From: a virus
IMG/VR virus record: IMGVR_UViG_3300012928_003129
Span: 12,182 to 76,181 of that record
Strand: one strand, 5' to 3'
DNA length: 64,000 nt
The notes beneath the pieces were generated by a model that worked only from the letters and a program-made list of their open reading frames with translations, ran no database searches and was not told the DNA's origin. The position numbers and the translations under genes were made by a program. Every line of letters starts with the position of its first letter. The stretch's first letter is position 1. Shown here piece after piece: positions 9,889 through 64,000 of this stretch.

Positions 9889-10195
<307 letters not shown>

Positions 10196-14645: not shown

Positions 14646-14667
14646 CTTAATCTTAAAAGGAGAAAAA

Positions 14668-14844: not shown

Positions 14845-14845
14845 C

Positions 14846-24400: not shown

Positions 24401-24409
24401 GGTTAGTCT

Positions 24410-25057: not shown

Positions 25058-25072
25058 TTTGGAGTTTTAGAT

Positions 25073-26661: not shown

Positions 26662-26671
26662 GGAAATTAAT

Positions 26672-29218: not shown

Positions 29219-29221
29219 AAA

Positions 29222-43600: not shown

Positions 43601-46600
43601 CAAAATTTAAAGAAGACTTTGAGCCAGTAGTTAAGGGTGAGTTCATCCCCGATGGTTCTGAGATGGTACCTCCTCAACCACGAACAAAAGATTCTGCACA
43701 ATATTATAATACTATTTCTGGCGAACACCTTGGTGGCGCGCGCCATTCATCTGACGGCTCAATTAGTATATCAGAAACCATTGAATATGAACCTAGGCAT
43801 TATATACTCGCTACAAACCCAGAATCTTTCCAAGATGACGGCTTCAGACCGCACCAAACATACGCCCCTCGCGCCCGTTACGGCGGCGGCAGCGCCGGCG
43901 AAGGCGTATTCGGCCAGTTCAATGCTCCATCGCGTGGATTGTCCCCGTCTGTTAATGTAAATAATTCTGTTTGGGAATCGATGCCAGAGGTGCTAGAGGA
44001 AAATCTAACTGTTGATAGTATACATGTTTTAGCCGGAGGCTCGGAGTCTTTTGTGCCACAGGCAATTAGATCCAAAAATGTTTTTATAAACAAGGCAGGA
44101 AAAATAACTCAAGAGCAGTACGACAATATATCTGATATTCTTCGCGATGATATAGAGGAAGAAATTTGGGAAGAATATATCATTGATTTAACAGATTATG
44201 CATCTCCTATCTTCACTCAACCGGGAGAATCTGGCTATAATCCAGTTGAGGAACTTTCCGAAGGTCAGAAAACCTCACTGGGTAATCGCCTTCAAGAAGC
44301 GTTACGGCTTATCCCCAAACGAGGCGATGATCTGGGCCCAAGGTACGACGAACAAAGAAACATAGTAATTTGGGACCAATGCGGAACAGGAGAAGAGCCT
44401 AATCCCCCAACACCGCAACCATCACAGGTCTTAAGGACAACTACAGACACACTATGCACAGACTCTGGCATGCCATCTGTTACAACAGCCGCTCCAGTAA
44501 GAGGAATCGGCTTTATCAGTAAAGAAGACGGCCTGGAAGATGCCCCTACCGGTATTGGTGTTCCTATCCCATCTGCTGGTTATGCATATTATGATAATAA
44601 CCTGTCGCTCGATTTTCAGCCCGGAGTCGCGGCACAGATAGACGGCTCCCGGGAAATCGACTTGGGGATATATGTTTTAAATGAAAAATCACAACATATC
44701 ATTGGTGAGAACGAATACAAAATACCACTGAGACTACTAATAACACAAGTAAAAGATTCTAGTGGAAATATAAAGGAGTGTTTCGTTAGGTACCTTATTC
44801 CAGAAGTGGCCACCTTTGGGAAAGAAGATGAATCCGGAAAGCGCGCTGAGTATTTGAAAGAGGCAACTTCTGAGGCGATAGGATCATATATAGATTTTCA
44901 CCATGACGCGTTTCAGAGGTTAGAGTTTGATGATAACTTAGCCGCGGAAAGAATGAGAACCTGGAACAACTGGTCCCGCGCTACCGCAGATGTCAGCCAA
45001 GACCCAAATACCGATCTCGAACGAAACATGTGGCGCCACTTTGCGGTAAACTGGGCAATGGGAAGAAGAACTGACCAAAGAGAACAAACCGGCGGTGCAG
45101 TCCCAGTGTTCTTAAGGTCGCAACGCTTCATGGGCGCCGGCAGAAACTCGATGGGTTGTGCTGTGCTCACTACAGAAAAGATATGGTCACAAGCTTCAAA
45201 TAAAGAAGCTAGAGCAAATACAGGGCATTTTGCAATTGATGCAAATGAAGATGAACATTCAGTTTTTGATGAATTTTTCAAATATAATCCTGGACATTTA
45301 CTTAGAAGAGAACAACCTGATCTTGGAGTTATCGGAAATGATATTAATCAGTTTATAGCAAGGTTCAAAAATTCACAGCCCGACAGCATCGATGCGACTG
45401 AAGAACAACAAGAGCTTTTAGCAAGAAAATATTTCAGCTATGCCCAAGCTTCACGGCATCATTTTTATCAGAAAAGTGTTTCGTCAATATTGGAAAGTCG
45501 TGATGAATCCGTCCTATCAATAGGAAACTTGGTGTCATGGTTTTCCCAACGTCGCGTGGATGGTTTTTATGGGGCAACGTCTAAGGATGTCAAAGGCCCA
45601 TTTTCAAAAACAAGCCAACAAAGAGGAATTACTTGTAATCCTGCAGGAGAACTTGCTACAAATCAAACCAACCTGGAGAAAACAGTTTACAGGACAGAGG
45701 CGGCAGATTATGATTGTGGCCCATCTTTATTCTATGGAGATAACAGAAACCTGCCAGAATTTTTTATATCCGAAGCTGCACGCCGATTAAAAGACAACGG
45801 CATGCCCGATACACTTAACAACTTTACTCTCAACAGTGTGATTCGAGGCTATAGAAATCAAAATGCTTACAAAGTTAATGTATCTACTTTTAGAGATCTC
45901 ACCACCGGTGGCGATATAGGGGTACTACACACGACCGTCAATATGAATGAGGACTATCAGGCTCGGCTTGAAAAAAAGAAAACTTTGGTAACTTTACACT
46001 CAAACCCCCAGGATGTAGCGATTGGATTGAATGAACTGGATCGCCGCATGGGGTCTACCGATAATCCTCTTGAGCCCAATAATAACGGAACAATATCGCT
46101 TGGCGGTGGTGGTTTTGATCAGATTGCTGAAAATGAATTTGAAATGCCCGTTGCCCCCAATGGCGGTGGCCACCACTTTGTTAAAATATCACAAGATCAA
46201 GAATCTTCATATAACTTATCTCCAGTGTACTCAGACCGACCTACAATGTTGATAGATGGTATTTTTCACAATCCAAAGATCGATGATTTGTTTGACCCGT
46301 GGTACCAGCGACACCAATCCGAAAATCTCCGCGACACGCAACCAGCAAGATATTATAGTAGTAATGACACTCTTATAAGTGAAATTGATAACGCATCTAA
46401 ATTTTTACAAGAAGCGGGAAATTTCAATAATCCGGTTACACGACAATATTTAGAAACAATCATCGACCGCTATTCTGAGAACTTTAATGATGCGCTGAGA
46501 TATGCGGATATATTATTGGAAGAGCTTTCAAAATTACTCTCAGGCATTGATCCTAGAGCCGCAGAGTTGGTATCTCAACTTGATGCACGACACGGTATAA

Positions 46601-47894: not shown

Positions 47895-48296
47895 ATGTTT
47901 CAACCTAGATACCCACTTAGCTTATCAGATCTTGAAGGCGCTTATGCCAGCATAAAAGATATTAAAGAGAATATAAAACAGAATGTAAAGTTTCTTTTAC
48001 TTACATCTGAAGGCGAGTGGCCCGGACGCCCAGAATTAGGGGTAGGTCTAAGAAGGTTTTTGTTTACAAATTATCCATCTCAAGATTTATTACTAATACA
48101 CAAAAAAATAAAAGATCAATTTGAAAAGTATATGCCATTTGTATCAATAAGATCAGAATTGATTGATAAAGACGAAAGAGGAGAAAGTTTTATAGATAGA
48201 AACGAAATCAAGCTTGTAGTTAGATATAGTGTTCCTTCAATAAATGTTGAAGATTATATGGTCTTCAATGTATCAGAGGGTACCCAAGCGCTGTAA
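47895..48296 (+). CDS. baseplate wedge subunit, T4 gp25-like
   Basis: IKQNVKFLLLTSEGEWPGRPELGVGLRRFLF...YMPFV. Confidence 0.88.
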   Translation: MFQPRYPLSLSDLEGAYASIKDIKENIKQNVKFLLLTSEGEWPGRPELGVGLRRFLFTNYPSQDLLLIHKKIKDQFEKYMPFVSIRSELIDKDERGESFIDRNEIKLVVRYSVPSINVEDYMVFNVSEGTQAL

Positions 48297-48336
48297 GTAG
48301 AAAACAGTTAACTAATTTATAAAAGAGAATAATAAG

Positions 48337-50142
48337 ATGCCAAAAAAAATTGTACCAATTGACTATACGAGCACAGATTTCGAAAAAATAAAAAGAGATC
48401 TCGTAAATTATGCTAAAAAATATTATCCAAATACCTATAAAGATTTCAATGAAGCATCTTTTGGTTCATTGATGACAGATCTTGTAGCTTACGTTGGTGA
48501 TAATTTATCTTTTTATTTAGATTATAATGCCAACGAGTCGTTTTTAAACACAAGTTTGGAATATGATAATGTCTTAAATCACGCAAATCAACTTGGTTAC
48601 AAGCATAGTCCATTTAAGTCTTCTGTTGGAGAAGTGGAAATTTTTATACCAATCCCTGCAAGTGACTCAAACGTCGCACCAGATCTAAGATATATGCCTC
48701 GTATAGCTAGGGGCACGTCTTTCTCAACGGCCGCGGGGAATGTTTTTACTTTAATAGATGATATAGAACTTTATAATGTCAACCCAGAAATTGTTGCAGA
48801 TCAGGTTTCTGCAGATGGCTCAAGAGTAGTTTATTATGCAGTTAAGACTACGGGAAGAGTCGCTTCGGGCGAGGAGTCGCAAACGGTTGTAGAGGTTGGT
48901 GATTATAAGAGGTTTCTTAAAATACCAGTTCCCGGAACAAATATAACAGAAATTGTATCAATTTTAGATTCAGAAGGGAATGAGTATTTTGAGGTTGATT
49001 ATTTAAGTCAAAATACTATCTATAGACCAACGCTATCTCGCACCCAAACTGATGGCACCATCGATCCGGCTGCAGCATCTATCATGAAGCCAATCCAGGT
49101 TCCAAGGCGTTTTATAGTTGAAAGAACAGTTGATCAGGTTTATGTGATATTTGGATATGGATCGGAAGAAGAAATAAAAGATAATGTAGTTGCAGATCCA
49201 TCAGATGTGGTACTGGATATAGCCGGCAAGAATTACGTTTCTAATGCAAATTTTGATCCGTCTAAGTTGCTATCAACAGATAAATTTGGAGTAACACCTG
49301 TAAATACGAATTTGACAATAACTTATAGAACAAATACATTAGATAATGTCAATGCTGCGGCAGGTACGATAACTAAAGTTTTATCACCAAAGATAGAATT
49401 TAGGGATGTGCAAGATCTAGAAACCGGAAAAATCAACTACATATATACAAATCTTGAAGTTAACAATCCTACGCCAATTAATGGAGATATAACAAGCCCA
49501 ACAACAGAAGAGATAAAACGCAGAGCAACAGCGACTTTCGCAATGCAAGGAAGAGCGGTCACACTTCAAGACTATGTTTCAGCTGTGTATGCAATGCCGT
49601 CTAATTTCGGGGCTATAAAACGAGCAGCAATCTATAGAGATGACGACGACTATAGAAGAAACATGAACCTGTATTTAATAGGAGAAGATAACCAGGGAAA
49701 ACTTCAGCACTGCAGTTCTGTACTTAAAGAAAATCTTAAGACTTGGTTAAATTCCGTAAGAATGGTTAATGATAGTTTGGATATGTTCGATGCGACAATC
49801 ATAAATATAGGCATTGAATTTACTGCATTGTGTCCTAGAGACGTCAACAAAAACGCGGTGTTTAATCGGGCAAAAGAAGAGATATATCGAAAAATAAATG
49901 AAGTAAAACCAGAAATTGGAGAGCCATTTAGTATTACAGAAATATTTAAAATCCTGAAGGGTGTCCCTGAGATACTAGATGTTTCTGATGTTGTGATAAC
50001 TTCAAAAAGCTCTTCTTCCCACTCGTCGTATGGGCACAATATTTTGGCGAATAAGTCAATTGACGGTCGTATGATCCACATTCCAAAAGATAGTATTTGG
50101 GAATTAAAGTATAAAAACGATATCACAGGAACAATTATATAA
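48337..50142 (+). CDS. baseplate wedge subunit, T4 gp6/J-like
   Basis: YTSTDFEKIK, LSFYLD..NESFL, FG.G, RAVTLQDY. Confidence 0.88.
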   Translation: MPKKIVPIDYTSTDFEKIKRDLVNYAKKYYPNTYKDFNEASFGSLMTDLVAYVGDNLSFYLDYNANESFLNTSLEYDNVLNHANQLGYKHSPFKSSVGEVEIFIPIPASDSNVAPDLRYMPRIARGTSFSTAAGNVFTLIDDIELYNVNPEIVADQVSADGSRVVYYAVKTTGRVASGEESQTVVEVGDYKRFLKIPVPGTNITEIVSILDSEGNEYFEVDYLSQNTIYRPTLSRTQTDGTIDPAAASIMKPIQVPRRFIVERTVDQVYVIFGYGSEEEIKDNVVADPSDVVLDIAGKNYVSNANFDPSKLLSTDKFGVTPVNTNLTITYRTNTLDNVNAAAGTITKVLSPKIEFRDVQDLETGKINYIYTNLEVNNPTPINGDITSPTTEEIKRRATATFAMQGRAVTLQDYVSAVYAMPSNFGAIKRAAIYRDDDDYRRNMNLYLIGEDNQGKLQHCSSVLKENLKTWLNSVRMVNDSLDMFDATIINIGIEFTALCPRDVNKNAVFNRAKEEIYRKINEVKPEIGEPFSITEIFKILKGVPEILDVSDVVITSKSSSSHSSYGHNILANKSIDGRMIHIPKDSIWELKYKNDITGTII

Positions 50143-51974
50143 TGTCGATAAAAAGAATAGTAGCAACAAAAGATAATACCATCTCAACAGCATTCAAGTC
50201 AAATCTTAATAATCGTGCGTCTGGCGCCAACATGGGCGCATCTGATATTTTAGAGATATTTTCTATATATGGCCACGCTAGTACTGGCTCTCTCGAGCGC
50301 GCCAGAATTTTGACGCAATTTGCTGTAGGTGAAATTCAGACTTTAAGAAACGCATCAGAGATTCCAGCTTCGGGATCAGTCTCTTTTATATTGAAGTTGT
50401 TCAACGCAGAGCATGGACAAACTACTCCATCTGGCTATACAATTAGCGCTGCCCCTTTGGTTCGGGCATGGAACGAAGGAGAAGGGTTAGATATGGAGAG
50501 TTATCTTGATAAGGGCCCAAGTAACTGGTTTTCGGCAAGTACAGGAACACCTTGGTACAATTATGGAGGTGATTATGCATCTTCGAATTATATACATACA
50601 TCACCAGTCCCTTTGCATTATGATAAATTATTAGATTCCGGATTAGAGGATTTTGAAGTCAATATTACCCCTTTGGTTGAAGAGTGGTTGAAGCTCGAAG
50701 CAGGAACTATGGTTAATGCTACTGCATCAATTACATTAGCTAGTAACCCCCCGCAATCGGAGATAATAAATCTTTATACATATGATGGTCAAAATCATAA
50801 TATTATAATCTCAACCGCGTCGGCCACTATTTCAACTAATCACTACGTTGAGCAGGGTACTACAAAAGAAGATACACTTGCCAATATAAAAACTCAATTA
50901 GATAACAATTTATCACTAAAATTATCGTCATCAGTGAGTGCTAATACTATTAATTTTTCACACGTAGCCGGAGGGTTTTATGGAAACAGTATTATATCCG
51001 CCAGTTTTGGTGATTCTGTGGGCACATTTACAAACTTTGGTGGCGGCCAAGGTGCTATAAACTATGGACTAGTGGTCAAATTGTCTGGCTCATATGAGTC
51101 TGGAGCAACTGGAAAAAGTTATTACACTAAGAAATTTTTTGCTAGGTCATCTCACCACTACTTTGAAAAGCCAATTATAGAAATTCAATGGGATGACTCT
51201 ATAAAAGACGACAGATCCAGCACATATAGGTCGTCTAGTTTGGCTACTGCAGAAGAAAATTTAAACAATATCTATCTTTATAACAGGAGAAGAACCGGGT
51301 ATGTGGACATACCAAATACAGGGTCTCATTTGTTGGTTAAGTTGGTACCTTCTCCCGGGCAAGAAAGAGAGCCAGTTACAGGGCCTAGTGTTGAGAACAA
51401 TTATATAACAGCAAGTAGACATTCGAAAGGCATATACAAAGCGACCTTTTCTTACTCGGGAAGCCAGGAAACATTATATGATGTTTGGCAAAAGCATGAC
51501 TCAGCTTCAGGAGCAAACACGGAATTGTTTACAGGTTCCGCCATATCTGTTAAGGACGATTTGTCTTATTCTTATTATGAAATTCCTAACTATGTAGTGA
51601 ACATAACAAATCTTAAGCCCACTTATCACCCAAGTGAAGTGGGTACATTTAGAGTTCATACTAGGGACAAAAATTGGAAACCAAACATTTATACGGTTGC
51701 TACAAGTGAAGCACCGGTAAATACGATTAGAGACGCATACTACAAGGTTTCAAGACCAGTGGATAATACAACTGTGATTGACTACTCTACTGGCAGTTCT
51801 CCAAGTTATTCTTCTTTATCTTATGACTTAAAGGGTTCTTACTTCGATTTAGACATGTCAATTCTAGAACCAAACTATTTATATGAGATAAGTTTTTTAT
51901 ATAAAGATGGTACAGATTATGTTGAACAAAAAGAAAAATTCAAATTTAGAGTGGACCCTAAAAAACTTGATTAA
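50142..51974 (+). CDS. Ser/Thr-rich virion structural protein (DNRLRE-like beta domain)
   Basis: KDNTI, WNEGEG..NW..W..GGD, NITPLVEEW, NYGLVVK, P.IEIQWDD; baseplate context. Confidence 0.7.
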   Translation: MSIKRIVATKDNTISTAFKSNLNNRASGANMGASDILEIFSIYGHASTGSLERARILTQFAVGEIQTLRNASEIPASGSVSFILKLFNAEHGQTTPSGYTISAAPLVRAWNEGEGLDMESYLDKGPSNWFSASTGTPWYNYGGDYASSNYIHTSPVPLHYDKLLDSGLEDFEVNITPLVEEWLKLEAGTMVNATASITLASNPPQSEIINLYTYDGQNHNIIISTASATISTNHYVEQGTTKEDTLANIKTQLDNNLSLKLSSSVSANTINFSHVAGGFYGNSIISASFGDSVGTFTNFGGGQGAINYGLVVKLSGSYESGATGKSYYTKKFFARSSHHYFEKPIIEIQWDDSIKDDRSSTYRSSSLATAEENLNNIYLYNRRRTGYVDIPNTGSHLLVKLVPSPGQEREPVTGPSVENNYITASRHSKGIYKATFSYSGSQETLYDVWQKHDSASGANTELFTGSAISVKDDLSYSYYEIPNYVVNITNLKPTYHPSEVGTFRVHTRDKNWKPNIYTVATSEAPVNTIRDAYYKVSRPVDNTTVIDYSTGSSPSYSSLSYDLKGSYFDLDMSILEPNYLYEISFLYKDGTDYVEQKEKFKFRVDPKKLD

Positions 51975-51994
51975 TAAAATAAGGAGTTATTAAG

Positions 51995-54900
51995 ATGCCC
52001 GGGCATTACAATCATGGCGACAAAGTAAACGTCAAGATACTTGGAAAATATACAAATAAAAACTTTCTCAGCGAAGCAGAGTCGGAAAGATTAGTAAATG
52101 CTTACATAAAACTTAAATCCAGATACATCCCAGAAATTGACTACAGAAAGCCAGAAACTTTTTCTTATTTTGGTTCTGCAAAAAAATATTATGAAGACAC
52201 CATAAAGGGTATATATGAGTCTTATCCATATGATGGCTCAAAGGCGGAAAAGGTAGAGTGGTCCTTATCCGCTTCATATTTAGATTTATATTTTATAGAA
52301 CACGAATATCCAAAGGCTAAAGGTCACATTACATTTGATAGGACTGGTGATACAATAAGTCAGCACAGTACTTTTCCTACTACAGATAATCCTCAATATA
52401 TAGAATTCACTGGTGGGCCACATATAGGAACAGTGTACGATGCCAATAACAACCGAGAAAGCAATCTAAAAATTGATGGGTCAAAAGGAAATACAATTGA
52501 GTTTTGGCTCAAGAAAGATGTTTCAAGCTTCTATTCAACAGCTATAAGAAACGAGGTCATATTTGAGTCAACAACTGCTGATTTCGGTATCAATGATCAT
52601 CAATACGGTAAAATAGCTGTTTACCTTGAATCAACTAACTCATCCACAGAGTCACCAATTTCGTTTGTATATCAATCCGGCACCAACGCAGCCGGCACAA
52701 AGGTATCGGCTAGAATAGGCTCTTCGGACATTACAAAGGATTCTGTAGGTGACAATCAGTGGCACCATTATGCAATAACAATATTATCAGATGACACCTC
52801 CACAGTAACAAAACTTTATGTAGACGGTGAACTTGACAGTACCAGGGTTGATTCTATTGTTGTAGGTCCAGTTGACCGACCCTTTGTTGGGTCAATTGGA
52901 GGTAGTGTAGAGGTCACACCAAAAGGTTCTGGAAAACTATCAGGCTCTCTTGATGAAATTAGGTTTTGGAAAGAAGCAAGAACAGAAAAAGAAATAGGAA
53001 GATTTTGGTATAGTCCGGTCCATGGAGGTACAGACAAAGATCACACCAATGCAAACTTGGGTTTGTATTACAAGTTCAACGAGGGTATTACGGGAATAGG
53101 GTCACACGATAAGGTAGTTTTAGATTATTCAGGCAGAATTGGCAATGGTGAGATTGTAGGCTGGGACAGTGACATGAGATCATCCATCAGCGCTATTGAT
53201 CAAAGTATAAATTTACCAGATTCAAGCTTTAAAGAAGTTGGGGACCCAATTATAAATCCATCGAATGTTTTAATTAAAGACGTTCTTGAACAATATCGCA
53301 AAATTGGTGAAGGTCACGATAGAAACAACATGGCTTCATTGGCAAACAGTGTTCCTAATTTTTTACATGATTTGGATAAAGAAGGTTTGTACGCAGATTT
53401 ATTACAGATCATGGCTTCAAGCTTTGATGATATTTTCTTAAAAGTAAAAAATTTGCCAAAGATTAGAGATTTTGCATATCATGAATTTTTCAAAGAGTCT
53501 GGCCAATATACAAATTCTCTTAGAAATAATTTTATTTTAGGATGTGATGATAATTATTTGTTTCAATTCACCGGTAACCATACAAAACCTTGGGTTGATC
53601 ATATACTAAGGCACTTTGGCCTTGTCACTACAGAGATATTTCCAGATGCATCGCTGTTTGAGATGTTTTATGAAAGGTCAGAAAAAACAAAGTTTGAGCA
53701 TGATTTAACAGAAGTTAGAAACACTATACTGTCTAATATTCACAAAAGTCTCGTGCACATATTTAAAACAAAGGGAACAGAACAATCTTTTAGAAACCTT
53801 ATAAGATGTTTCGGTATAGATCAAGAGTTGGTACGTCTTAACGCTTACGGTAAAAATGAAAATTTTCCAATTGAAATTAAGCCTGTTTATGCAACCGCAA
53901 AAAGAAAAACAATTAGCTTTGAAGGGACAAATTATCAAGGTACAGTACATCATACCTCTTCAGCGTCTGATGAAATAAGCTATATAGCATCCGAACCCAG
54001 TAAGAAGCCAATGTCTGTAACGAGTAATTTCTACTTTACGAAGCGGTCATCATTAAATCAAAGCGAAACAAATAGAGTTTCACTATTTGGAATGCATTCT
54101 GTATTAGGTTCCACTAATGAGGACGATCCACTGAAATGGCATGCAGAGGATTCAGGAAGCTTTCAGGTGTACTTCAATAAAAAGAGTAGATATTCTCCGG
54201 ATGGATATTTTGAACTTTCCTCATCAGCAGGTGTTTTTCAGGCAGTCTCTTCTTCTATAATACCTCGGGTGTATGATAATACTCACTGGGCTTTGGCTGT
54301 AAGAATAGGTAAAAAAAGTTTTGTAGACTTTAATGTAATACCTACTGGTTCATCTAATCAATATGCAATTGAACTTATCGGGTATGAGTATGAATTAGAC
54401 ACACTTAAAAATACTTTTAAACTGTCATCAAATATTTCTGGTGATGACTTTGATAAGCTTTCTAAACAGGATAAAGCCTTGTATCTTGGGTCCCATAAGA
54501 CAAACTTTAGTGGCTCACACCTAGATTCTTCTGACGTCCGCGCTTTTGGTATGTCTGCCTGGAGAGATATATTGGATGAGGATGAAATTAAAGAGTATGC
54601 GAAGAATCCAAATTTCTTTGGTCGTACTGATCCACTCAAAATATCATCTCATGATGACGGAGAGAATTTAAAAAGAGCAGAATCACTTTTATTAAGATGG
54701 CAATTCAACAATCTCACAGCATCAAACTCCTCAAATCAGATGGATATCGTAGACTTTTCAGCTCAAGCAGGCCAGTCAGCACAATCTTCTAAAAAATATC
54801 CTGGTCTAGCAATAGACATGGTTGCCGGCCCAAGTTCAATTCAGCAAGAATTTTTACCAGTGGTTGAATACAATGTTCTAGATAATCTTCACACTAGCGA

Positions 54901-57900
54901 CCGGGTCAAGATAAAGTCTCAAGAATTAGATAGGTTCGAGTCAGATAGTAGGCCAATTACATACTTTTATAATTTTGAAAAAAGTATGTACCAAGTGGTG
55001 TCCATAGAAATGATAAACATGTTTGCAAGTATAGTTGGCTATAACAATATTATAGGCGATCCTGTACATAAATATCGCTTAGATTACAAGGGACTTGAAA
55101 AACTAAGAGAAAGATTTTTCAGAAGAGTCCGGAACGACATGGATTTGGATAAGTTTGTTGAATATTACAGGTGGATAGATTACTCTTTGTCAAATTTTTT
55201 AAACCAATTAATTCCAGCCTCATCAGAATTTGGAAGTAATATAAAAAATGTAGTAGAAAGTCACGCACTCGAAAGAAACAAATACCAACATAAAATACCT
55301 ACTTTGCGTTTAAGTAATGAAGAAATCTCCGCAAACGCTGTGTCTATTGGCGAGTTTGGATTTAATTGGAAACAGCCAAATGACTTTTTTGAGAACCAAG
55401 TAGAGGCCTCTATAGATTTTGCTTCTAGTTCTTCTGTAGAAGTGTCCGATCAAGATGATCTTACACATAGTAACAGTCCAGATGCTCCCTTTGCAATATC
55501 TTTTTGGTTTAATTTACAAAACACCGGCAGCGGCGAACAGGTCTTGTTAAATAAGAGTTCCGAATATTCTGTAAAAGTGGATGATGACGACCTAGAATTT
55601 ACTCTCTTTAGTGACGCGAGTAATCACACCACTATCACTGCTGCAAATCAAATAGGTACTGACTGGACCAGCGTAATTGTGACGTATGATGGTACGCTTG
55701 ACGAAGCAACAGCTTCAGCAACGCCTAGGAAAATATACATCGACGGCGCTGTAGCATCTGCAACAACCAGCTCGGTAGGAAGCTACTCTGGCATGACAAA
55801 TACTTCAAATAGTCTTGTTATCGGCGCCGCAAATGTCAGTGGCTCAAACAGTTTCAATGGTCGCATAGCAGATATCGTTATGATTACGGGGTCAGAGCTT
55901 ACAGCTGGGCAGGCGACAGAGATATACAATGGCGGCCGCAGCTTTGACATTACAAATTTTTCCCGCTACGATGATGTTGTCGCTTGGTGGAAAATGGGTG
56001 ATGATGCAGATTTAGCAGCAGGGTCGGGATCAATAAAAGATTATGTAGGGAACCACCATGGCACTCCCAGTAGTGTAACTATATCCTCGGAAACAACTAA
56101 GGTTTATAGTCACTTTAGAGATATACCAGCTTCAGATGTTAGGTATTCTTTGTATCAGGCAATAAAAACAGATATACCAAACTCTTTGTCATCCACTCGT
56201 TGGAAATCAACACCGTTTAGGGTAATCACTGGCATGCCAAGTAATCTTACCACCGGCATAAACAAGTTAAGTCACGAACCTCTTTCCGCTTTATCAAGAA
56301 TAAACAACGGCCAAAGTGTAGTTGTGACAAAAGACGATTTAGACAGCCAAGCTCACCGTGTAGACGCGGAGCTTCCATTTACATTGACTAGTGCGTCTAA
56401 TGGAGTTGAAGGCGCAGATCTTAAGGACAATTATTTAATAACAAACAACCATTTAGACATCTCTATAACGAAAGATGTTTCATTAAAGGGTCTTTTTGCA
56501 GATACACATGTCGGCGGTATGCCACACAGAAATGTCCCTTTTGGAACATCAGATTCAGAAAGGCCTGAAGCTTATAAGCTTGATTTTGCAAGCAATCAGC
56601 TCACAATATCACAAACTCCAATCAACAAGCCAAAGTCGATGTTTTTTAGAGGAGTGTCAGCGACCCGCTTTATGAATTTTTCAAACATAAAGGATTCTTC
56701 AATTACAGGTGCTTTAGGTAACTATCAAAAAGATTACGAAATTGTAAAGACATTGGGGCGCTTATCTAGAAATAAATACCTTGTGGAGACCACTGGGTCT
56801 TGGCTCTCGCAGGATGCTGCAGCGTCTACTCATATAAGTGGAGTAGTAGATTTTGAAGTTCCCCAAAGGACAAGAGCGGAGCATGTCATAACAAATAGGT
56901 TTACTGCTCTCGGTGGTCCAGAAACAACCGCTCTGACTAGAGATAGGGAGACAGAAGAATACTCAGTCTACAATACACTAAATTACAGAAACTCAATCGT
57001 AAGAACAGCAAAAAATATTCTTAGTGCAGAACCGTCTGAAAAGTTTGGATACCGGTCTGGAAGCGCAACTCAAGGGTCTATACACAAAATAAACAGAAAT
57101 CCGCAAAGATTTATGCTTGGAACAGAGCATGCATCAAGATTTGACAATGAATTCGTACAACATCAAATACCACAATCTGACTATCAATACAGTTGGGTGA
57201 CGCAATCAGTAGATGACACAGTATACGATTTCTTGCAGAGAAACGACAACCGTCCATATGTTAGTAAATTTTCTCTTAAACACGGACAATATATTAAAGA
57301 TTTTTCTCAAGAGACAACTGGTACATTACCATCAGCTTGGTCTACAAGCAATTCTGACAAGTCTTCTATATATGCAACAGTCGAAAGCAACCAGACTATA
57401 GAAATAACAGCCTCCGCCGGAGAATTGATTGCCCCCGGAGCAAGAATGTTCTCGTCAGAAAATTTATTAATATCAGAAAATAGATTATATAGAAGGGTAG
57501 GAACGTCATACACGCTTGAGTATATTATAGACACTAGGTTTAATGTTGATGCTTTTGCAGTTAATCAATCAGAAGACCTTGTGGCATCAATAGTACACAC
57601 TGACAGTTCCTTCAATTCAGCAAGAGCAATTGATATTCACCGAAGCTCATCTGGCGGCTGGGTCTTAGAAACTAGCCTAACCGGCGCTTTCGGCAGCAGT
57701 CTAAACAGAAGCACGAAAATGGGCGGGATATTCTTCTCTGGATCTTCCGTGGTATATGGAGACTTAACAAGCGGCACTGCAGAGCGTCTTAAAGTAAATT
57801 GGTTTACATCTTCTTCTTTGGGTTGGGGATCTAGAAACCAAAGTATTATAAATTCAGGAACGGACTATTTGCAATTTGAAACAAACTGGGCTTATGACTC

Positions 57901-60900
57901 CAGCACCTCTAAGGCATTAGTGCATGGATTAAATAATATTAAAGAGATACAATATAATCATGGAACTTCGCAGTGGGAAGTGTATCGTACCCATTCAGAG
58001 AAGACAAATGCTGAAGCGGCGTTCCTTGCTTATCAAGATGGTGTTGTAGCGATTGGTTACCCAGGCACGGGTTATCGAGGACTGGGGACTTCGACACCTG
58101 TTGGGGAAGTGAATATAATTCACCCAGACTCTCAAACAAATACTATTAAAGCACCAGATCAAGACTTTATAGATGGTTTCGGTACATCAATTGATTTTAG
58201 CGGTAGTTATATGGCCATCGGCGCGCCAAACTTTGACATTACTTTTAACTCATCTGAAAGGGAGTTAGTCTCTAATGATAAAGGGGCAGCATATTTGTAT
58301 AAAATAGACTCAGACCAATCAGGATCTTCCGACTGGGCTTCGATTCAAAGAAAGATATATACTCGTGTAGAGAGCCCAAGAGATTTCTCCAAATTTGCTA
58401 CAAGTCTGGGATTTACAGGGCCGGCTCTTGCTGTTGAGACCCCTGGCGAGGCTACATTCCTCGGGTCTTTCGAGTCAGATTCCTCAACTCATGTTAACAT
58501 TTATGAGGTATCAAGTTCAGCCACGCCTGTAGATTTGGTGCTGTCAGGTCCGATTATTAGTGGAAGTTCTGGCCAGGCCGCTCTTCTATTTAAGGGGGAT
58601 AGCGTTTTTTCTAACGAAATCAATCAATTGCCATCTCAATTTGAGCAGGTAACTGGTCATAAATTTAGAATACTAGAGACATTAACAGGAATAACACCGA
58701 CTTCTTCTGAATTTTCTATTGAAATAGAAGTTATAGAAGGGAGCACCTCTTCCTCTGACTTATCAAATTCAGTGTATGGTTTAACATCTTCTCCGTCTTC
58801 AAAAGAGAAATTAGTTTTACAATATAAGGTAGGATCTGGAAAGTGGAAAACTAGCAAGATTTCTTTAGTTGGCTCTGGAACTACAGCGCAAGAAAGTCAA
58901 AAAAGTTTTAATAAACATATAACTGAGCTTATATCTAATGGAAAGATGGAAGAGGTACATGTCAGGATAATTTCTAATATTGAAAATAAGGACAGCACCC
59001 CTTGGGGTCTAGGAAAGATATCTTTGGTAAATAGCGCTGATTCATCAAAATCAGAAGAGAACTTGATAGAGCTAAGCAACTATAGAAGAGATGTCATAAA
59101 AGAAAATACAAAACAAATTGATGTTCTATATTTTACAAATGGGTTCATGTCTCAGTTATCTAATTTACAAGGATCTTCTCCATTAGGCTCCAGGCCTGGC
59201 GACCATGACTCCGGCCTACATTGGGGTAATGGAACAACAGATTATGCTAGAAGTGTTCAGCTTTGGGTAAAACAAGACGCCATCAGTATTGCGGATGGTG
59301 AAGAGAGTATAATTGCTCAACTTGCAGGTGGTACTGGGGCCAGTTATGATGCTGAGGGATTTTATCCGGGTGCTAGAGCGTGGGAACTATCAGTAGAGCA
59401 TCAATCTGGAAAAATCAAATTTATTTTTAGAATACAAGATGACTATTCTAGTATTGCCTCACGCGGAGACTATTATGAAGTAAAGACTATTTCTTCGTAT
59501 AATGTTGAAGAGTGGCACCATGTGTGTGTAACATATGATGGCAACGGCACTTCGACAACCTCGGGTTTAAAAATATATGTTGATGGCAACCCGGTAGATC
59601 TATTAACCAATAGGACAAGCACTTCTTTTCAAGCAATAAGGTTTCACGCAGATCTTAAGTTGATGCTCGGCGCTACGGATCCGGCACAGCAGTCTATGTT
59701 AAGTTTTATGGGTAAAATGAATTACCTAGCTCAGTTTAATAAAGAATTGTCACAAGCTGAAGTTCAGGAGCTGTATGAATTAAGAAATAATATATCAGAA
59801 AATTATAGCTTAGAGTTAGACCCACTTAAGATAACACAATCTAGTATAAAATCTAGTCTAGCTGCAGCATGGCCGCTGAACAAAAATAACTTACAGATAG
59901 ACTCATCAACAGGTTATTCTATATATACAGATATAGTTTCTGGATATGAACTAGTGGGAGAAACACATCAAAATAGTAATGTTACAGCATACAAGAGAAT
60001 TGCACCTTTCAGTGTGGTAGAAAATATAGAAAAAATTATAGGTTACACTCAGCCTTATGAGATAGAAAATTATAATACTTTAACAGTCAGTAACGATAAA
60101 GATTATCTTAAGAACACACTTTCGCCATATGCACATGCATCATGGGTACAACTTAGGGCTACAGAGTCACCTGTTGTTAGAAAGCAAAGGAAAGATAACA
60201 AGCTTACGATTTCGGTAAGAGGATCTCGTGTGCACCCTAAGTCAATAAATACTTACTATCATGATTTGAATTCAGAACTTGATCTGACACCTGGCATGAC
60301 TTTGGTTAATGAGTCAAGGGAAGTGGAAGTATACGATGAAGTCTTTGTGACGAAAAAATATCAACCACTTACTATCACCTTGCATACAGAGATATCAGAA
60401 AATATAATTCAAGCTCCAACTAGTTCTGCTCTCGTTGTTTCACAAGAAGATATGAGAGACCATTGGTCAGGAGAAGAAACTCTCTCTACCATTTATAATG
60501 GCGATATACCCTTAGAAGACACTCGATTGATTTCTATGAAAGTCTCGGCGCCGAATGACTTAACTATGTTTTCAAGTGAAGAGTTGAACAATAAGTTGGA
60601 AATGGATCAACACCGTCCTCACGACATATCTGATATAATCCAAGGAATCAGAAGCGTTGCAAGTTCAGAGGTTGCTGTAGTTGAAATTGGATATAAAGAA
60701 GTTATTTATCCTCGCGAAGTAAATTCTTTCACGAACCGAGCGCGCACCCGCGTAAATTTTGATTTTTACTCTTGGAGAAACCTGAGGCAAGACAGGATTA
60801 ATATACTTTCTGGTTCGAACAATTATGGAAACACGCTAGTCAATATCGGGTCAACAAAGATCTTTCCAGACATTGAGATTGACAAGTTCGATTTCTTGAG

Positions 60901-63900
60901 CACTAATGAGTTCTTTGTGGATTCTAGAAATATTGATAATAGATTTTCTGAAAACCCTGTCACTATACATTTGACTGCATCACGTTGGCCGCTAGACGCA
61001 CGAAGTAATTTTTCTGGTCTTCCGTCAAGTTTAGAAAAGTCTTACTTCAAACAAGGTGATCTTTACTTTACCGACAGTGATATTGGCACTTTTGGAGAAG
61101 GTACTCTACAGAATGACTACAGTGTTTTTGGCATGGGATACAACGGCCTATACGGCACACCACCACCGGCACCTTTATATTCAAGAAGAGTGGTGCAAAC
61201 ATCTGGCTCGATAGAATATTTAGCAGGTGAAGCTAAGTGGAAAGCCGCAGAGCAATCTGGAAAGTATCCTTTTGAAAATTCTGGAGATACAACAGAAAAG
61301 CTAAGAAGGTTGTGGCAAGATCACTCATTGGTACCAGAGTACAGAGTTAGTGATTACATAGAGGATATTGTTCTTAACGAGCAATCTAATTTTAAAAAAG
61401 TTAGAGATAAATCCGATTACCTACAAGTCACCGGAGCAATATACCATACAAGCTCTCAGGAAATTTCAGTTGGCACAAGCTTCTTCAAGACCTATGGCAC
61501 AAGCGATTTCATGAAATATTTCGGCATGACACTTGACGAAGTGAAGGAAAACAATCTTGGTGGAGCAGCCCAGCTAACACTTAAGTGTAACGCAGCCATA
61601 AAGTTTACACCTTACAGAGGGTTCTATCCTGTAGAAAGGACACTTCAAATAGGGGAATTGTTTTCAAGAGGGTATATGCCAGAATTTTCCATTACAGACG
61701 AAAGGCAAACTGCCGCAGATAGAACACAGGTTACATCTCCTGAGAAGATGGTCGAAAGAAAAATTAGAGCAAATTTACAACAATCTTTAAAACCTTTGAT
61801 GGCACCAGGTATTCTATATAATTCAATTAAGTCTGGTTTAGCTGTAGATTATCCAGTTTTTGGTTCGACCGCTGATGACACTGCCCTTGAAAACTTTGAC
61901 ACTGCAATTAGGCAAGAGTTTGAACCGGTGATAGCCTTTGACTCAAGCTTATCTTCTCTGACAAATATAACAGGATCAGAGATAAATGCAAGTAAAGATG
62001 AAGGAATACCTCGACTTAAGGGACCAGTTGATCACAGAATCACATTCGAAGATATGTTGGACCCCCAGCGTTTAATAGGAAAGAAGATATACGATAATGA
62101 GCCGCACCCTTCTGCAAGTATATATTACGGCGATGCAGCAGTGACAAAGGTTTTTGATTATCCTTTCCGTTTCGGACAATTAAATTCTGATAATAATCAG
62201 AGCAAGTTGTTTGCGGGTAATTTTAACTTACAAAAAACATTAGATGATACATTAACTCCTTACAAGATGGCAGTAAATAATTTTTGTGCAGAGACAGTTA
62301 ACTTTTTTCTTGAAAACGGAAATCTTGCAAGTCTTGAATCAGATCAGGTTAATCCTAATCTTGTTAGTGGATCACAATATAAGATGCGCGTTTACGTGAA
62401 AAACAATAGCATATCTATGTATGACAGGCACTCATCTTTTGGTCCTGCAGTAAATGAGGGGGATATACTAGTAACACAAATTAGTGGCACCGCCACCACT
62501 AACCCCGGCACCGCCGCGTTTGCTAGCTTGGGCTCCCCACGCATAACCATTGCCGCATCTGCAATAGGTACTGGATCGACAAATTTTGTTCTTGAGGATT
62601 CATCTGGTAGTACTATAAAGGTAGTATTTAGATCTGGGTCAACAGGTACAGACATAACAACCGGTAGTTATGGGCCCAACTCATCTTTCGATTACGATGT
62701 TAGTCAATATGGTAAAGTGTATGTAAATAACCTTACATCTTCGATAGATCTCGGCGCAATCGAAAATTCCAATGAGATCAATACTGTGTCAATAAATAAG
62801 TTAATGGAGGTGGCGGTAAACTATCACCGATGGTCAGGGTCTTTTGGGATTGAAGCAAATTTTGCAAACAACAATATTAGGCTTAGGCAGCGCACCATAG
62901 GTACAGCTGGAAATACACCCATTGTGTCAACAGGAAGTATATCATCTCTTTATCCTAGTTTTCCGACTCACCTCACTGGCGGCACGGCCAACTCAACAGA
63001 TTATACCAGTGTTGTAACAACAAAGATAACAGTCAGCTCTTCACATGAATACGCGCCGTTTGTTCCTCCATATTTGGATCAAGGAGCTGAGCCATATGTA
63101 GAGATATCATTCACACCGGAGGAAAGCAGAAACTATTCTCTAGAGGAAATATTGCAAGGATCCAGTTATCAATATGTTAACTTTAAGGAAGTTCCGTCAA
63201 ATGCCTCGAACAATGATAACTACAAAAATGCAATGTCAATTTCAGCATCACTAGACTTAACTAATTTCGTAGCATACGAGGAAGACAGTCAAGATCCTGG
63301 AACTACCTTACAGCAAAGAAAAAGATGGGTAATACAGACAAAGTGGGAAACACCTCTGTTGAATTTTAAAAACTCATCGGTTGATGCATTGAATTTAAAT
63401 AACATGTCAGTTGTCTCGGTTACCGGATCGCCATGGCAATCTAGAAGCTGGAACCAATATTTAACCAAATCAGTGTTAACACATTCAGAAAATTATCTGA
63501 CTTCTTCAACTGGTATGTGGCATCAATATGGCTCCATACTTAACAGTAATGAGGGCTATAACATATCTATAAGAAAAGTTGAGGGAGTCTCTCAAGACTT
63601 GCAATTGGCCCGAAAGGTTGGATTCTTGGGAGAAGACATGAAGCCTTTAGTAGCAACACCAGGTAAAATTGCTGAAAAGAAAGAAATATCTGAAGCTGTT
63701 GTTGCAATACCTTTTTATGTGGATCAAAGAGGAGGTCAATTAAAGTTTTTTACAGTTAAAAGCAGATTGCTTGATCAAGCAGTGGGCTTGAATAGCACTC
63801 GTAAAAGCGAATACATGCAATCCATTAGTGGCACTCCTGCATCTTCAGGTGAATACAAGGAACTTCGAGAACAATACTTAAGATTCTACAACAACCCAGG

Positions 63901-64000
63901 CGCCACTGGGAAAGAGTCTATTGCTTATCAGATGAGGATGATGGAAAAGTTTGTTTTCCCATCACAATTTGATTATTATACATACCCTGATTTGTCACAA
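51995..64000 (+). CDS. giant (>4000 aa, 3'-truncated) tail/baseplate protein with multiple LamG-like domains and FG-GAP-like repeats
   Basis: AAGGAG SD, MPGHYNHGDK...; frame open in all lines checked and no stop-terminated ORF listed in this frame; TIEFWLK/WHHYA/LYVDG/SLDEIRFW, ISFWF/TYDG/IYIDG/WWKMGD, WHHVCVTYDG/IYVDG; FGTSIDFSGSYMAIGAP. Confidence 0.85.
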   Translation, partial: MPGHYNHGDKVNVKILGKYTNKNFLSEAESERLVNAYIKLKSRYIPEIDYRKPETFSYFGSAKKYYEDTIKGIYESYPYDGSKAEKVEWSLSASYLDLYFIEHEYPKAKGHITFDRTGDTISQHSTFPTTDNPQYIEFTGGPHIGTVYDANNNRESNLKIDGSKGNTIEFWLKKDVSSFYSTAIRNEVIFESTTADFGINDHQYGKIAVYLESTNSSTESPISFVYQSGTNAAGTKVSARIGSSDITKDSVGDNQWHHYAITILSDDTSTVTKLYVDGELDSTRVDSIVVGPVDRPFVGSIGGSVEVTPKGSGKLSGSLDEIRFWKEARTEKEIGRFWYSPVHGGTDKDHTNANLGLYYKFNEGITGIGSHDKVVLDYSGRIGNGEIVGWDSDMRSSISAIDQSINLPDSSFKEVGDPIINPSNVLIKDVLEQYRKIGEGHDRNNMASLANSVPNFLHDLDKEGLYADLLQIMASSFDDIFLKVKNLPKIRDFAYHEFFKESGQYTNSLRNNFILGCDDNYLFQFTGNHTKPWVDHILRHFGLVTTEIFPDASLFEMFYERSEKTKFEHDLTEVRNTILSNIHKSLVHIFKTKGTEQSFRNLIRCFGIDQELVRLNAYGKNENFPIEIKPVYATAKRKTISFEGTNYQGTVHHTSSASDEISYIASEPSKKPMSVTSNFYFTKRSSLNQSETNRVSLFGMHSVLGSTNEDDPLKWHAEDSGSFQVYFNKKSRYSPDGYFELSSSAGVFQAVSSSIIPRVYDNTHWALAVRIGKKSFVDFNVIPTGSSNQYAIELIGYEYELDTLKNTFKLSSNISGDDFDKLSKQDKALYLGSHKTNFSGSHLDSSDVRAFGMSAWRDILDEDEIKEYAKNPNFFGRTDPLKISSHDDGENLKRAESLLLRWQFNNLTASNSSNQMDIVDFSAQAGQSAQSSKKYPGLAIDMVAGPSSIQQEFLPVVEYNVLDNLHTSDRVKIKSQELDRFESDSRPITYFYNFEKSMYQVVSIEMINMFASIVGYNNIIGDPVHKYRLDYKGLEKLRERFFRRVRNDMDLDKFVEYYRWIDYSLSNFLNQLIPASSEFGSNIKNVVESHALERNKYQHKIPTLRLSNEEISANAVSIGEFGFNWKQPNDFFENQVEASIDFASSSSVEVSDQDDLTHSNSPDAPFAISFWFNLQNTGSGEQVLLNKSSEYSVKVDDDDLEFTLFSDASNHTTITAANQIGTDWTSVIVTYDGTLDEATASATPRKIYIDGAVASATTSSVGSYSGMTNTSNSLVIGAANVSGSNSFNGRIADIVMITGSELTAGQATEIYNGGRSFDITNFSRYDDVVAWWKMGDDADLAAGSGSIKDYVGNHHGTPSSVTISSETTKVYSHFRDIPASDVRYSLYQAIKTDIPNSLSSTRWKSTPFRVITGMPSNLTTGINKLSHEPLSALSRINNGQSVVVTKDDLDSQAHRVDAELPFTLTSASNGVEGADLKDNYLITNNHLDISITKDVSLKGLFADTHVGGMPHRNVPFGTSDSERPEAYKLDFASNQLTISQTPINKPKSMFFRGVSATRFMNFSNIKDSSITGALGNYQKDYEIVKTLGRLSRNKYLVETTGSWLSQDAAASTHISGVVDFEVPQRTRAEHVITNRFTALGGPETTALTRDRETEEYSVYNTLNYRNSIVRTAKNILSAEPSEKFGYRSGSATQGSIHKINRNPQRFMLGTEHASRFDNEFVQHQIPQSDYQYSWVTQSVDDTVYDFLQRNDNRPYVSKFSLKHGQYIKDFSQETTGTLPSAWSTSNSDKSSIYATVESNQTIEITASAGELIAPGARMFSSENLLISENRLYRRVGTSYTLEYIIDTRFNVDAFAVNQSEDLVASIVHTDSSFNSARAIDIHRSSSGGWVLETSLTGAFGSSLNRSTKMGGIFFSGSSVVYGDLTSGTAERLKVNWFTSSSLGWGSRNQSIINSGTDYLQFETNWAYDSSTSKALVHGLNNIKEIQYNHGTSQWEVYRTHSEKTNAEAAFLAYQDGVVAIGYPGTGYRGLGTSTPVGEVNIIHPDSQTNTIKAPDQDFIDGFGTSIDFSGSYMAIGAPNFDITFNSSERELVSNDKGAAYLYKIDSDQSGSSDWASIQRKIYTRVESPRDFSKFATSLGFTGPALAVETPGEATFLGSFESDSSTHVNIYEVSSSATPVDLVLSGPIISGSSGQAALLFKGDSVFSNEINQLPSQFEQVTGHKFRILETLTGITPTSSEFSIEIEVIEGSTSSSDLSNSVYGLTSSPSSKEKLVLQYKVGSGKWKTSKISLVGSGTTAQESQKSFNKHITELISNGKMEEVHVRIISNIENKDSTPWGLGKISLVNSADSSKSEENLIELSNYRRDVIKENTKQIDVLYFTNGFMSQLSNLQGSSPLGSRPGDHDSGLHWGNGTTDYARSVQLWVKQDAISIADGEESIIAQLAGGTGASYDAEGFYPGARAWELSVEHQSGKIKFIFRIQDDYSSIASRGDYYEVKTISSYNVEEWHHVCVTYDGNGTSTTSGLKIYVDGNPVDLLTNRTSTSFQAIRFHADLKLMLGATDPAQQSMLSFMGKMNYLAQFNKELSQAEVQELYELRNNISENYSLELDPLKITQSSIKSSLAAAWPLNKNNLQIDSSTGYSIYTDIVSGYELVGETHQNSNVTAYKRIAPFSVVENIEKIIGYTQPYEIENYNTLTVSNDKDYLKNTLSPYAHASWVQLRATESPVVRKQRKDNKLTISVRGSRVHPKSINTYYHDLNSELDLTPGMTLVNESREVEVYDEVFVTKKYQPLTITLHTEISENIIQAPTSSALVVSQEDMRDHWSGEETLSTIYNGDIPLEDTRLISMKVSAPNDLTMFSSEELNNKLEMDQHRPHDISDIIQGIRSVASSEVAVVEIGYKEVIYPREVNSFTNRARTRVNFDFYSWRNLRQDRINILSGSNNYGNTLVNIGSTKIFPDIEIDKFDFLSTNEFFVDSRNIDNRFSENPVTIHLTASRWPLDARSNFSGLPSSLEKSYFKQGDLYFTDSDIGTFGEGTLQNDYSVFGMGYNGLYGTPPPAPLYSRRVVQTSGSIEYLAGEAKWKAAEQSGKYPFENSGDTTEKLRRLWQDHSLVPEYRVSDYIEDIVLNEQSNFKKVRDKSDYLQVTGAIYHTSSQEISVGTSFFKTYGTSDFMKYFGMTLDEVKENNLGGAAQLTLKCNAAIKFTPYRGFYPVERTLQIGELFSRGYMPEFSITDERQTAADRTQVTSPEKMVERKIRANLQQSLKPLMAPGILYNSIKSGLAVDYPVFGSTADDTALENFDTAIRQEFEPVIAFDSSLSSLTNITGSEINASKDEGIPRLKGPVDHRITFEDMLDPQRLIGKKIYDNEPHPSASIYYGDAAVTKVFDYPFRFGQLNSDNNQSKLFAGNFNLQKTLDDTLTPYKMAVNNFCAETVNFFLENGNLASLESDQVNPNLVSGSQYKMRVYVKNNSISMYDRHSSFGPAVNEGDILVTQISGTATTNPGTAAFASLGSPRITIAASAIGTGSTNFVLEDSSGSTIKVVFRSGSTGTDITTGSYGPNSSFDYDVSQYGKVYVNNLTSSIDLGAIENSNEINTVSINKLMEVAVNYHRWSGSFGIEANFANNNIRLRQRTIGTAGNTPIVSTGSISSLYPSFPTHLTGGTANSTDYTSVVTTKITVSSSHEYAPFVPPYLDQGAEPYVEISFTPEESRNYSLEEILQGSSYQYVNFKEVPSNASNNDNYKNAMSISASLDLTNFVAYEEDSQDPGTTLQQRKRWVIQTKWETPLLNFKNSSVDALNLNNMSVVSVTGSPWQSRSWNQYLTKSVLTHSENYLTSSTGMWHQYGSILNSNEGYNISIRKVEGVSQDLQLARKVGFLGEDMKPLVATPGKIAEKKEISEAVVAIPFYVDQRGGQLKFFTVKSRLLDQAVGLNSTRKSEYMQSISGTPASSGEYKELREQYLRFYNNPGATGKESIAYQMRMMEKFVFPSQFDYYTYPDLSQ

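Follow-up and report, generated by a model that had tools for sequence, protein, structure and literature searches.

A candidate glycan-acceptor tripeptide on phage outer tail proteins and its joint loss with a sugar-gene island

The sequence considered here (the window) is a stretch of 64,000 nt, one strand, from a 76-kb IMG/VR virus fragment (IMGVR_UViG_3300012928_003129). Its final 27 kb hold, on the + strand, a T4-type baseplate module with two outer tail proteins, termed A and B, in which the tripeptide Ser/Thr-Gly/Ala-Ser ([ST][GA]S) is strongly over-represented. This motif is itself the object of selection, it lies on the outermost tail proteins, and only phages that produce sugars of their own, here from an island of sugar genes upstream, retain it. 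An earlier note had proposed that the tripeptide is the acceptor of a phage-encoded glycosylation system coating the virion. In that proposal the enrichment, the surface-type position of the sites and their loss together with the island found support; the identification of an enzyme and covalent modification itself did not. Covalent O-glycosylation of A and B at [ST][GA]S would be the simplest link between motif and island, and it is the best reading of the comparative data, held at somewhat under half confidence. The phage is probably an uncultured marine member of the Far-T4 type, judging by its relation to Rhodothermus phage RM378 and Flavobacterium phage immuto. Phages of this type are thought to infect Bacteroidota (PMC7198788).

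Enrichment of the tripeptide in proteins A and B

Protein A (50142–51974, + strand; 610 amino acids, aa) and protein B (51995–64000, + strand; more than 4002 aa, continuing past the window end) lie downstream of a gp6-like baseplate wedge protein (48337–50142, + strand; 601 aa; phrog_219, E 1e-20). This gives the order of a T4-type baseplate, in which a gp6-like wedge is followed by peripheral baseplate or fibre proteins. Open reading frames (ORFs) were called mechanically, and expected motif numbers were taken from amino-acid composition by shuffling. Protein A contains 13 motifs against 2.2±1.4 expected, and protein B contains 34 against 11.3±3.2. Protein C, a giant inner tail protein of 3408 aa (37627–47853, + strand), is motif-poor with 3 against 4.7, and the gp6-like protein has none against 0.7. 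A LysM-domain protein of the baseplate or hub region (36316–37608, + strand; PF01476) is also motif-free, and every other window ORF of at least 150 aa has 0–2 motifs. Pfam and PHROG searches with protein C gave no match. The excess persists when residues are shuffled within 40-aa blocks (z 6.9 for A and 6.5 for B), so local composition is not its cause. When 729 reduced-alphabet tripeptide classes were scanned without bias, [ST][GA][ST] ranked first in A (p 5e-6) and in B (p 4e-9), and not in C. The motif sites are scattered without periodicity, and they are encoded by distinct 9-mers in 13 of 13 cases in A and 33 of 34 in B; with codons so varied, the excess must arise at the protein level. 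The recount reproduced exactly the numbers of the earlier note (13, 34, 0 and 3), and its description of dispersed sites with varied codons, as well as its claim of enrichment over shuffled proteins, holds after control of global and local composition and after the class scan. Its picture needs correction in one respect: the residue order is directional in A (seven T[GA]S against one S[GA]T) but not in B (13 against 11).

The same pattern extends to close relatives. More than 1,400 homologues of A occur in marine metagenomes, and 81 of them, about 50% identical, were aligned. Sites 77, 131, 194, 393, 423, 464 and 550 carry the motif in 64–78 of the 81 sequences, partly by changes within the residue classes, and ten motif columns are filled in at least 40% of the homologues. 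The third-place Ser is retained in a median fraction of 0.92 of homologues, compared with 0.36 for other Ser residues, and the flanks are poorly conserved. Outside the ten conserved columns, A is still 2.1-fold enriched, over 63 different columns. Totals over 80 related loci, whose sequences are not independent of each other, amount to 777 motifs observed against 177 expected for A (4.4-fold) and 1873 against 514 for B (3.65-fold). The corresponding numbers are 25 against 72.3 for the 80 gp6-like orthologues (0.35-fold), 20 against 57.1 for the orthologues of C (0.35-fold) and 102 against 128.5 for other ORFs of these loci (0.79-fold), and the orthologues of the LysM protein have 0 against 4.9. 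The excess recurs in 80 + 85 orthologues. In G001, a relative with a complete genome, the B orthologue tops the outliers, and the remaining genome has 47 motifs against 64 expected. Motif enrichment is a lineage trait confined to the outer tail proteins. Neither megablast with window positions 48000–56000 nor tblastn with A found a match among 50,697 phage records. The ratio of 0.35 in the gp6-like protein and C, compared with about 0.75–0.8 for other proteins, may additionally hint at avoidance of the motif in non-target proteins. This is suggestive only, as counts for single proteins are low and the sequences compared are related, and RM378 has no general depletion.

Judged by gp6, Microcystis phage Mel-JY01 is one of the two closest cultured phages, with 33% identity over 99% of the length of the gp6-like protein, and phage immuto is the other, with 30% identity to its 'baseplate wedge protein'. 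Nearly all of their post-gp6 proteins are enriched, with 56 motifs against 12 expected in Mel-JY01 and 88 against 23 in immuto. RM378 has 74 against 33 genome-wide, and its outliers are grouped at 64.8–78.5 kb; a PHROGs search gave these proteins no identity, and their role in the virion is assumed. T[GA]S stands to S[GA]T as 22:6 in Mel-JY01, 41:12 in immuto and 18:2 in RM378, and T[GA]T is enriched in none of the phages compared. Taken together, these two facts indicate that Ser at the third place is strict. The sites themselves turn over: just 4 alignable sites (of 17 in Mel-JY01 and 22 in immuto) are common to the orthologues of these two phages, yet both sets are 4–6-fold enriched. Where an orthologue is without the motif, the residues aligned to it are hydrophobic in 5–20% of cases (background 34%) and D, E, K, R, N or Q in up to 47%, an evolutionary substitution proxy that points to surface-type positions. 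On the other hand, no enrichment is found in the baseplate and fibre proteins of T4 (12 against 16.3 expected), ACP17, P-RSM6 or Cr30, although the Cr30 proteins are as Ser-rich as A and B. These four phages stand outside the clade and do not have its sugar genes. The motif excess is therefore not general to phage fibres or to Ser-rich beta proteins. A particular arrangement is seen in the 'tail spike protein' of immuto (L095:35287-38448). Its N-terminal part, about 600 aa long, is built from short h-[ST]-[GA]-S-[FY] and GDGSxLTG repeats and holds 53 motif sites; the C-terminal repeats are of the YadA/Hep_Hag type and match BpaC (7O23, E 6e-10). No solved relative was found for the repeat region.

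Protein A was modelled with AlphaFold from the alignment of 81 homologues (predicted local distance difference test, pLDDT, 85). The model is all-beta and predicts a jelly roll resembling carbohydrate-binding modules, an inserted domain at about residues 190–300 and immunoglobulin (Ig)/FN3-like domain structure at the C-terminus. Residues 1–351 match a chondroitin-sulfate-binding module (8WAB_B; Z 18.4, root-mean-square deviation 2.6, 172 residues aligned) as well as an alginate-binding module (7VBO_A, Z 14.7). A Foldseek search of A against PDB returned generic Ig-like matches alone, with low TM-scores, and a profile of A against PDB sequences returned nothing meaningful. Protein B is a mosaic lectin-like fibre or baseplate protein with three Laminin_G_3 stretches, Laminin_G_2 and an FG-GAP repeat. 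About 1100 of its N-terminal aa are conserved, and the remainder is made up of lineage-specific inserts that are likewise motif-enriched. Surface turns had been expected by the earlier note. In the model of A, the sites fall at strand starts, in hairpin turns, in strands and in a loop, four structural contexts of which none is exclusive, and their surface-type character rests on the substitution proxy given above.

Joint loss of motif and sugar island

Upstream of the baseplate module, two core glycosyltransferases of family GT4 stand in tandem. GT4a (20268–21563, + strand; PF00534, 53.0 bits against a cut-off of 26.4) is of the retaining type with a conserved E-x7-E. GT4b (21563–22828, + strand), always directly 3' of GT4a, exceeds the same PF00534 cut-off marginally (26.6 against 26.4 bits). 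The conserved left neighbour of the pair is a PD-(D/E)XK nuclease (19525–20310, + strand; PF12705, E 4e-22), which in immuto and Mel-JY01 adjoins the pair or is separated from it by one gene. To the right follows the variable sugar island (22773–33870, + strand), assigned by Pfam and NCBIfam. It comprises a weak GT2-like gene, RmlC, a 2-oxoglutarate oxygenase-like protein, an RmlB-like dehydratase, RmlD, a DegT aminotransferase, an ORF without assignment, a methyltransferase, an LbH acyltransferase, PhyH, a FabH-like protein, an SDR and a GT2-GT92 fusion. The glycosyltransferases and the sugar pathway that the earlier note had placed upstream are thus confirmed. A late sigma-like factor (34597–35304, + strand; phrog_234, E 6e-5), with orthologues of 56–66% identity in 7 of 7 relatives, forms the right boundary, and island size was gauged by the distance from GT4a to this gene.

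About 50 loci were reached through gp6, and all but two are 2.2–5.6-fold enriched downstream of it. The two exceptions are locus L161 on contig G019 (1.7-fold) and L173 on G020 (1.3-fold). In G019 (145 kb, 80% complete) the gene order is PhoH, nuclease, GT4a, GT4b, sigma factor, LysM protein, C, gp6, A and B, with the nuclease directly before the GT4 pair, and the sugar island is missing. Its A orthologue has no motif and that of G020 has one. Both have nevertheless kept their length and are 36–43% identical to other A proteins, the same as the others are among themselves. Sites conserved in more than 90% of the other A proteins are replaced in these two: SGS77 by -TT/GGN, TGS393 by PEP/LAA, TAS423 by QAV/AMD, and TGS464 by EGE/LSE. 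Furthermore, the Ser content of A falls from 12.6% to 6%, and gp6, GT4a and GC content are unchanged. The subclade has five distinct contigs, in which A has 0–1 motifs and the downstream ratio is 0.7–2.0; all other relatives of A have 7–13 motifs and a downstream ratio of 3–5.7. The distance from GT4a to the sigma factor is 3.1–3.2 kb in 4 of 4 testable members (G019, G037, G038 and G039), all of them without the island stretch, compared with 14.3, 17.0, 26.4 and 28.6 kb in four motif-rich genomes. PF01370 and PF00535 are absent anywhere on the contigs of these four members, and the control G042 has two and three of them, respectively. In a gp6 tree, which was quick and midpoint-rooted and in which most contigs are incomplete, the subclade comes out as monophyletic (support 99), with motif-rich lineages around it. 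Judged by these sequence comparisons, the motif is not a folding requirement, since the A orthologues retain identity with only 0–1 motifs, and it is tied to the sugar island.

A second instance is provided by LR756508 (484 kb), which is nested in the clade of Mel-JY01 and immuto beside lineages with ratios of 4.4–5.1. It has GT4a, and neither GT4b nor the island. Four orthologous proteins contain 7 motifs, compared with 30 and 22 in the Mel-JY01/immuto clade, and the excess is roughly halved; a few of the sites are still conserved, and a genome-wide motif scan of LR756508 gave no strong outlier. For its size, this record (LR756508.1, W03) has just 306 ORFs of at least 150 aa with table 11, and an alternative genetic code may be in use, which would blur motif counts. 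The acceptor-type motif accordingly tracks the sugar genes: A has 0–1 motifs in island-less relatives against 7–13 in island-bearing ones, with LR756508 as the further instance. The co-occurrence of motif and sugar genes pictured in the earlier note is thereby extended to the relatives, in that those without the island do not keep the enrichment. As far as can be told, joint loss of the motif with the island is new here.

Proposed glycosylation and rival explanations

According to the favoured reading, [S/T]-[G/A]-S with a strict third Ser would be an acceptor-type surface motif on the distal baseplate or fibre proteins A and B, and these phages would probably decorate both proteins while still in the cytoplasm, with soluble enzymes of the neighbouring island both making and transferring the sugars. 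We infer that the sugar would be attached covalently, with Ser as the acceptor. The island would vary from phage to phage like an O-antigen locus, and the motif would stay constant. A further and more tentative step would be a 'virion serotype' system, possible but doubtful, in which a fixed sequon and an exchangeable island yield a phage-specific glycan on the host-recognition apparatus and the sequon is discarded along with the island. Several properties of the enzymes fit such a scheme. GT4a, GT4b and the GT2-GT92 fusion exceed the Pfam cut-offs, and all are predicted to be soluble. Hydrophobic segments reaching the membrane-segment cut-off (Kyte-Doolittle 19-residue mean of at least 1.6) are missing from all 15 island products. 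No family match to an initiating phosphoglycosyl transferase, flippase, polymerase or ligase was found in the island, and nothing among its products amounts to a lipid-linked (Wzx/Wzy or ABC) pathway; host machinery could serve instead. DNA as the acceptor of the sugars was judged unlikely because nucleoside analysis of immuto DNA by liquid chromatography-mass spectrometry gave only dA, dC, dT and fdPreQ1 (PMC10516641).

Which enzyme would read the motif is a more difficult matter. GT4a and GT4b are the only conserved candidates and cannot be the whole story. Orthologues of GT4a are 53–68% identical in 16 relatives and about 30% identical in immuto and Mel-JY01. GT4b is 38–57% identical and always in tandem with GT4a in the 16 relatives. 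Homologues of GT4a are also present in RM378 and LR756508, and RM378 has a homologous GT4 pair. The E-x7-E glutamates (E299/E307 in GT4a and E283/E291 in GT4b) occur in at least 95% of 17 and 16 orthologues, respectively. Among solved or curated proteins the nearest relatives of the pair are generic, namely BshA, MshA and the chlorovirus glycosyltransferase B736L, the last being the second-best solved relative of GT4a; similarity to protein O-transferases is trace only. The content of the island varies between relatives, and the GT2-like and GT2-GT92 genes of the window have no orthologue in 20 relatives, which rules out a conserved island transferase as the sequon reader. The island at the same position in L082 (G007:C1:125300-145243), for instance, encodes NeuB, UDP-GlcNAc 2-epimerase, two formyltransferases, sulfotransferases, a carbamoyltransferase, FkbM methyltransferases and GT2, a content that suggests a glycan of the nonulosonic-acid type. 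In L103, L111 and L112, the GT4b orthologues have 683–697 aa, with an extra fused C-terminal part of about 270 aa.

A number of observations speak against glycosylation. In motif-less G019, GT4a and GT4b are intact (32 of 33 and 34 of 35 conserved positions, E-x7-E kept), so the pair must serve a function independent of the motif, and it is ruled out as a sufficient cause. Additionally, GT4a is as similar to small-molecule GlcNAc transferases (BshA and MshA) as to protein transferases, and no island glycosyltransferase is conserved among the motif-rich relatives, yet the motif is identical everywhere. Capsid, sheath and tube of G001 are unenriched, which means that a simple tripeptide is not the sole determinant. 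Most sites of A fall in well-ordered regions of the model and not in flexible tails, and some sites of B are placed in LamG loops, which may be common to that domain family at large. Furthermore, the joint loss amounts to two evolutionary events only, and a host shift could account for both. Confidence thus stays under half, since the basis is statistics and comparative genomics and no enzyme fits throughout: every island transferase changes between phages under a constant motif, and the GT4 pair is intact where the motif is gone.

The serious rival, although unlikely, is host-linked co-adaptation without covalent modification. In this explanation Ser-rich loops of A and B bind host glycans, the island separately remodels the host envelope, and a change of host loses both. 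The small number of joint-loss events is in keeping with it, as are the carbohydrate-binding-module fold of A and the lectin-type domains of B. Such islands have been read as serving O-antigen remodelling or superinfection exclusion (PMC7029224), and enzymes of the island type could also extend host lipid-linked intermediates. However, carbohydrate sites are normally built of aromatic residues with Asn, Gln, Asp and Arg, not of a directional tripeptide with a strict Ser, and motif sites occur in every domain of A and in the non-homologous inserts of B instead of being limited to binding pockets. Moreover, the same motif occurs in phages of Flavobacterium, Rhodothermus and Microcystis, and the island is without a membrane export or ligation gene. 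It is quite unlikely that the tripeptide is a purely structural signature, that is, an element capping strands or forming turns in beta-sandwich, jelly-roll and fibre modules, with folding or assembly as the sole target of selection. Sites often stand directly before beta-strands or in hairpins of the A model, the N-terminus of the 1053-aa immuto fibre consists of periodic h-[ST]-[GA]-S-[FY] repeats, the flanks at -1 and +3 are hydrophobic, and a few sites are conserved even in LR756508. Against this, all the conserved A sites are replaced in the G019 clade with length and identity kept, most sites differ between the Mel-JY01 and immuto orthologues, and Thr is excluded from the third place though favoured in strands. 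Baseplate, fibre and giant beta-rich proteins of other phages are unenriched, and the sites occupy four structural contexts.

Another modification or recognition event at the motif, such as O-acylation, phosphorylation or island-dependent binding of an assembly factor, is improbable. The island does have acyl-building enzymes (FabH-like, SDR and LbH), methyltransferases and oxygenases, other islands carry sulfo-, carbamoyl- and formyltransferases, and room for it is left by the GT2-like and GT2-GT92 genes being unconserved and the GT4 pair intact without the motif. Nonetheless, the acyl-type enzymes stand with RmlB/C/D and DegT in arrangements typical of sugar tailoring, and no kinase or protein acyltransferase family was detected. 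A chance or compositional artefact of Ser-rich proteins, which might be suspected as A and B contain 12–13% Ser and the motif was chosen after viewing the sequence, has next to no probability left and is refuted by the shuffles (z about 7 against global and local ones), by the top rank in the unbiased scan and by recurrence in the orthologues of A and B, with the equally Ser-rich Cr30 proteins unenriched.

Known systems and further features of the locus

Virion O-glycosylation by phage-encoded glycosyltransferases is known from mycobacteriophages (Freeman et al. 2023, cited in PMC12619734). As summarised in that citing paper, the likeness lies in phage-encoded soluble glycosyltransferases that are proposed to decorate the phage's own virion proteins in the cytoplasm. 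The mycobacteriophage glycans are described there as chemically proven and located at the C-termini of capsid and tail-tube subunits, whereas the present case is a dispersed tripeptide on distal proteins known from sequence evidence. Unlike that type, as far as it is described there, the present phages have a large hypervariable sugar-synthesis island, and capsid and tube are unenriched; no other protein of G001 stands out.

In Gram-positive cocci, GtfA and GtfB O-glycosylate Ser in S-[A/V/E]-S-type motifs of serine-rich-repeat adhesins in the cytoplasm, and variable transferases extend the glycan; GtfB is the non-catalytic GT-B partner of the catalytic GtfA. The phage pair resembles this system in being two adjacent proteins of GT-B fold, and the N-terminus of the immuto fibre is similarly repeat-like. 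It differs in that both phage GT4 proteins keep E-x7-E together with the rest of their conserved residues, most sites of A are in folded domains, and the pair persists without the motif. The only sign of a relationship is a match of GT4b to 4PQG (E 0.007), and the NCBIfam matches include no GtfA/GtfB model, the nearest being SdgA (E 0.002), far below its cut-off. With both sets of catalytic residues kept and trace similarity only, membership in the GtfA/GtfB system was rejected.

Sugar-gene ('LPS', lipopolysaccharide) islands of marine T4-like pelagi- and cyanomyophages have been interpreted as modifying the host O-chain (PMC7029224). They share with the present island a hypervariable cluster of glycosyltransferase and deoxy-sugar genes beside tail or host-recognition genes. 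Unlike them as so interpreted, the present island co-varies with a motif on the phage's own tail proteins. Giant viruses (Mimivirus and chloroviruses, with glycosylated fibrils and capsids) and, for its exosporium glycoprotein BclA, Bacillus encode their own routes to rhamnose and to methylated or acylated 4-amino-6-deoxy sugars, which are placed on surface proteins. Self-encoded sugar pathways are the common trait, and GT4a is related to chlorovirus B736L; the viruses, hosts and acceptor sequences are different, and no homology of acceptor proteins was found. In the literature searched, a sequon on tail proteins of this kind is not described.

Few unexplained features of large marine phages are as common as sugar islands, which are usually put down to remodelling of the host surface. 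If the glycosylation reading is true, these islands would have a definite target, an acceptor motif on the receptor-binding proteins of the phage itself. Virion glycosylation would reach beyond actinobacteriophages to aquatic myophages, which are abundant and in this case probably infect Bacteroidota, and the tail glycans would be predicted to affect adsorption, protease resistance or recognition. The question is open to direct testing, with genes and motif present together in three cultured relatives (immuto, Mel-JY01 and RM378).

Some other features of the window may be mentioned. The sequence ACTANTTA, considered as a late promoter, occurs in 15 copies against 14.4 expected, with none directly before the glycosyltransferase genes, so that expression timing is not inferable from it. 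A 221-aa protein (18510–19175) has a sub-threshold match to the N/C-terminal domain of anthrax lethal factor (E 1.5e-4, 22 bits, cut-off 27.4); it probably has a metalloprotease-like fold, nothing more, and its orthologue is found in G019. A fusion of a PIN domain with a PhoH-like ATPase (16968–18284) is kept upstream of the nuclease-GT4 block in G019 too. ARAGORN detected a transfer-messenger RNA (9888–10195; tag peptide ANDDVETFEDFALAA) and a tRNA with anticodon CAT (14572–14646). Additionally, auxiliary genes encode adenylosuccinate synthetase (2249–3256), a pyridoxal phosphate-dependent (PALP) enzyme (11213–12073) and a ClpP-like protease (14825–15484).

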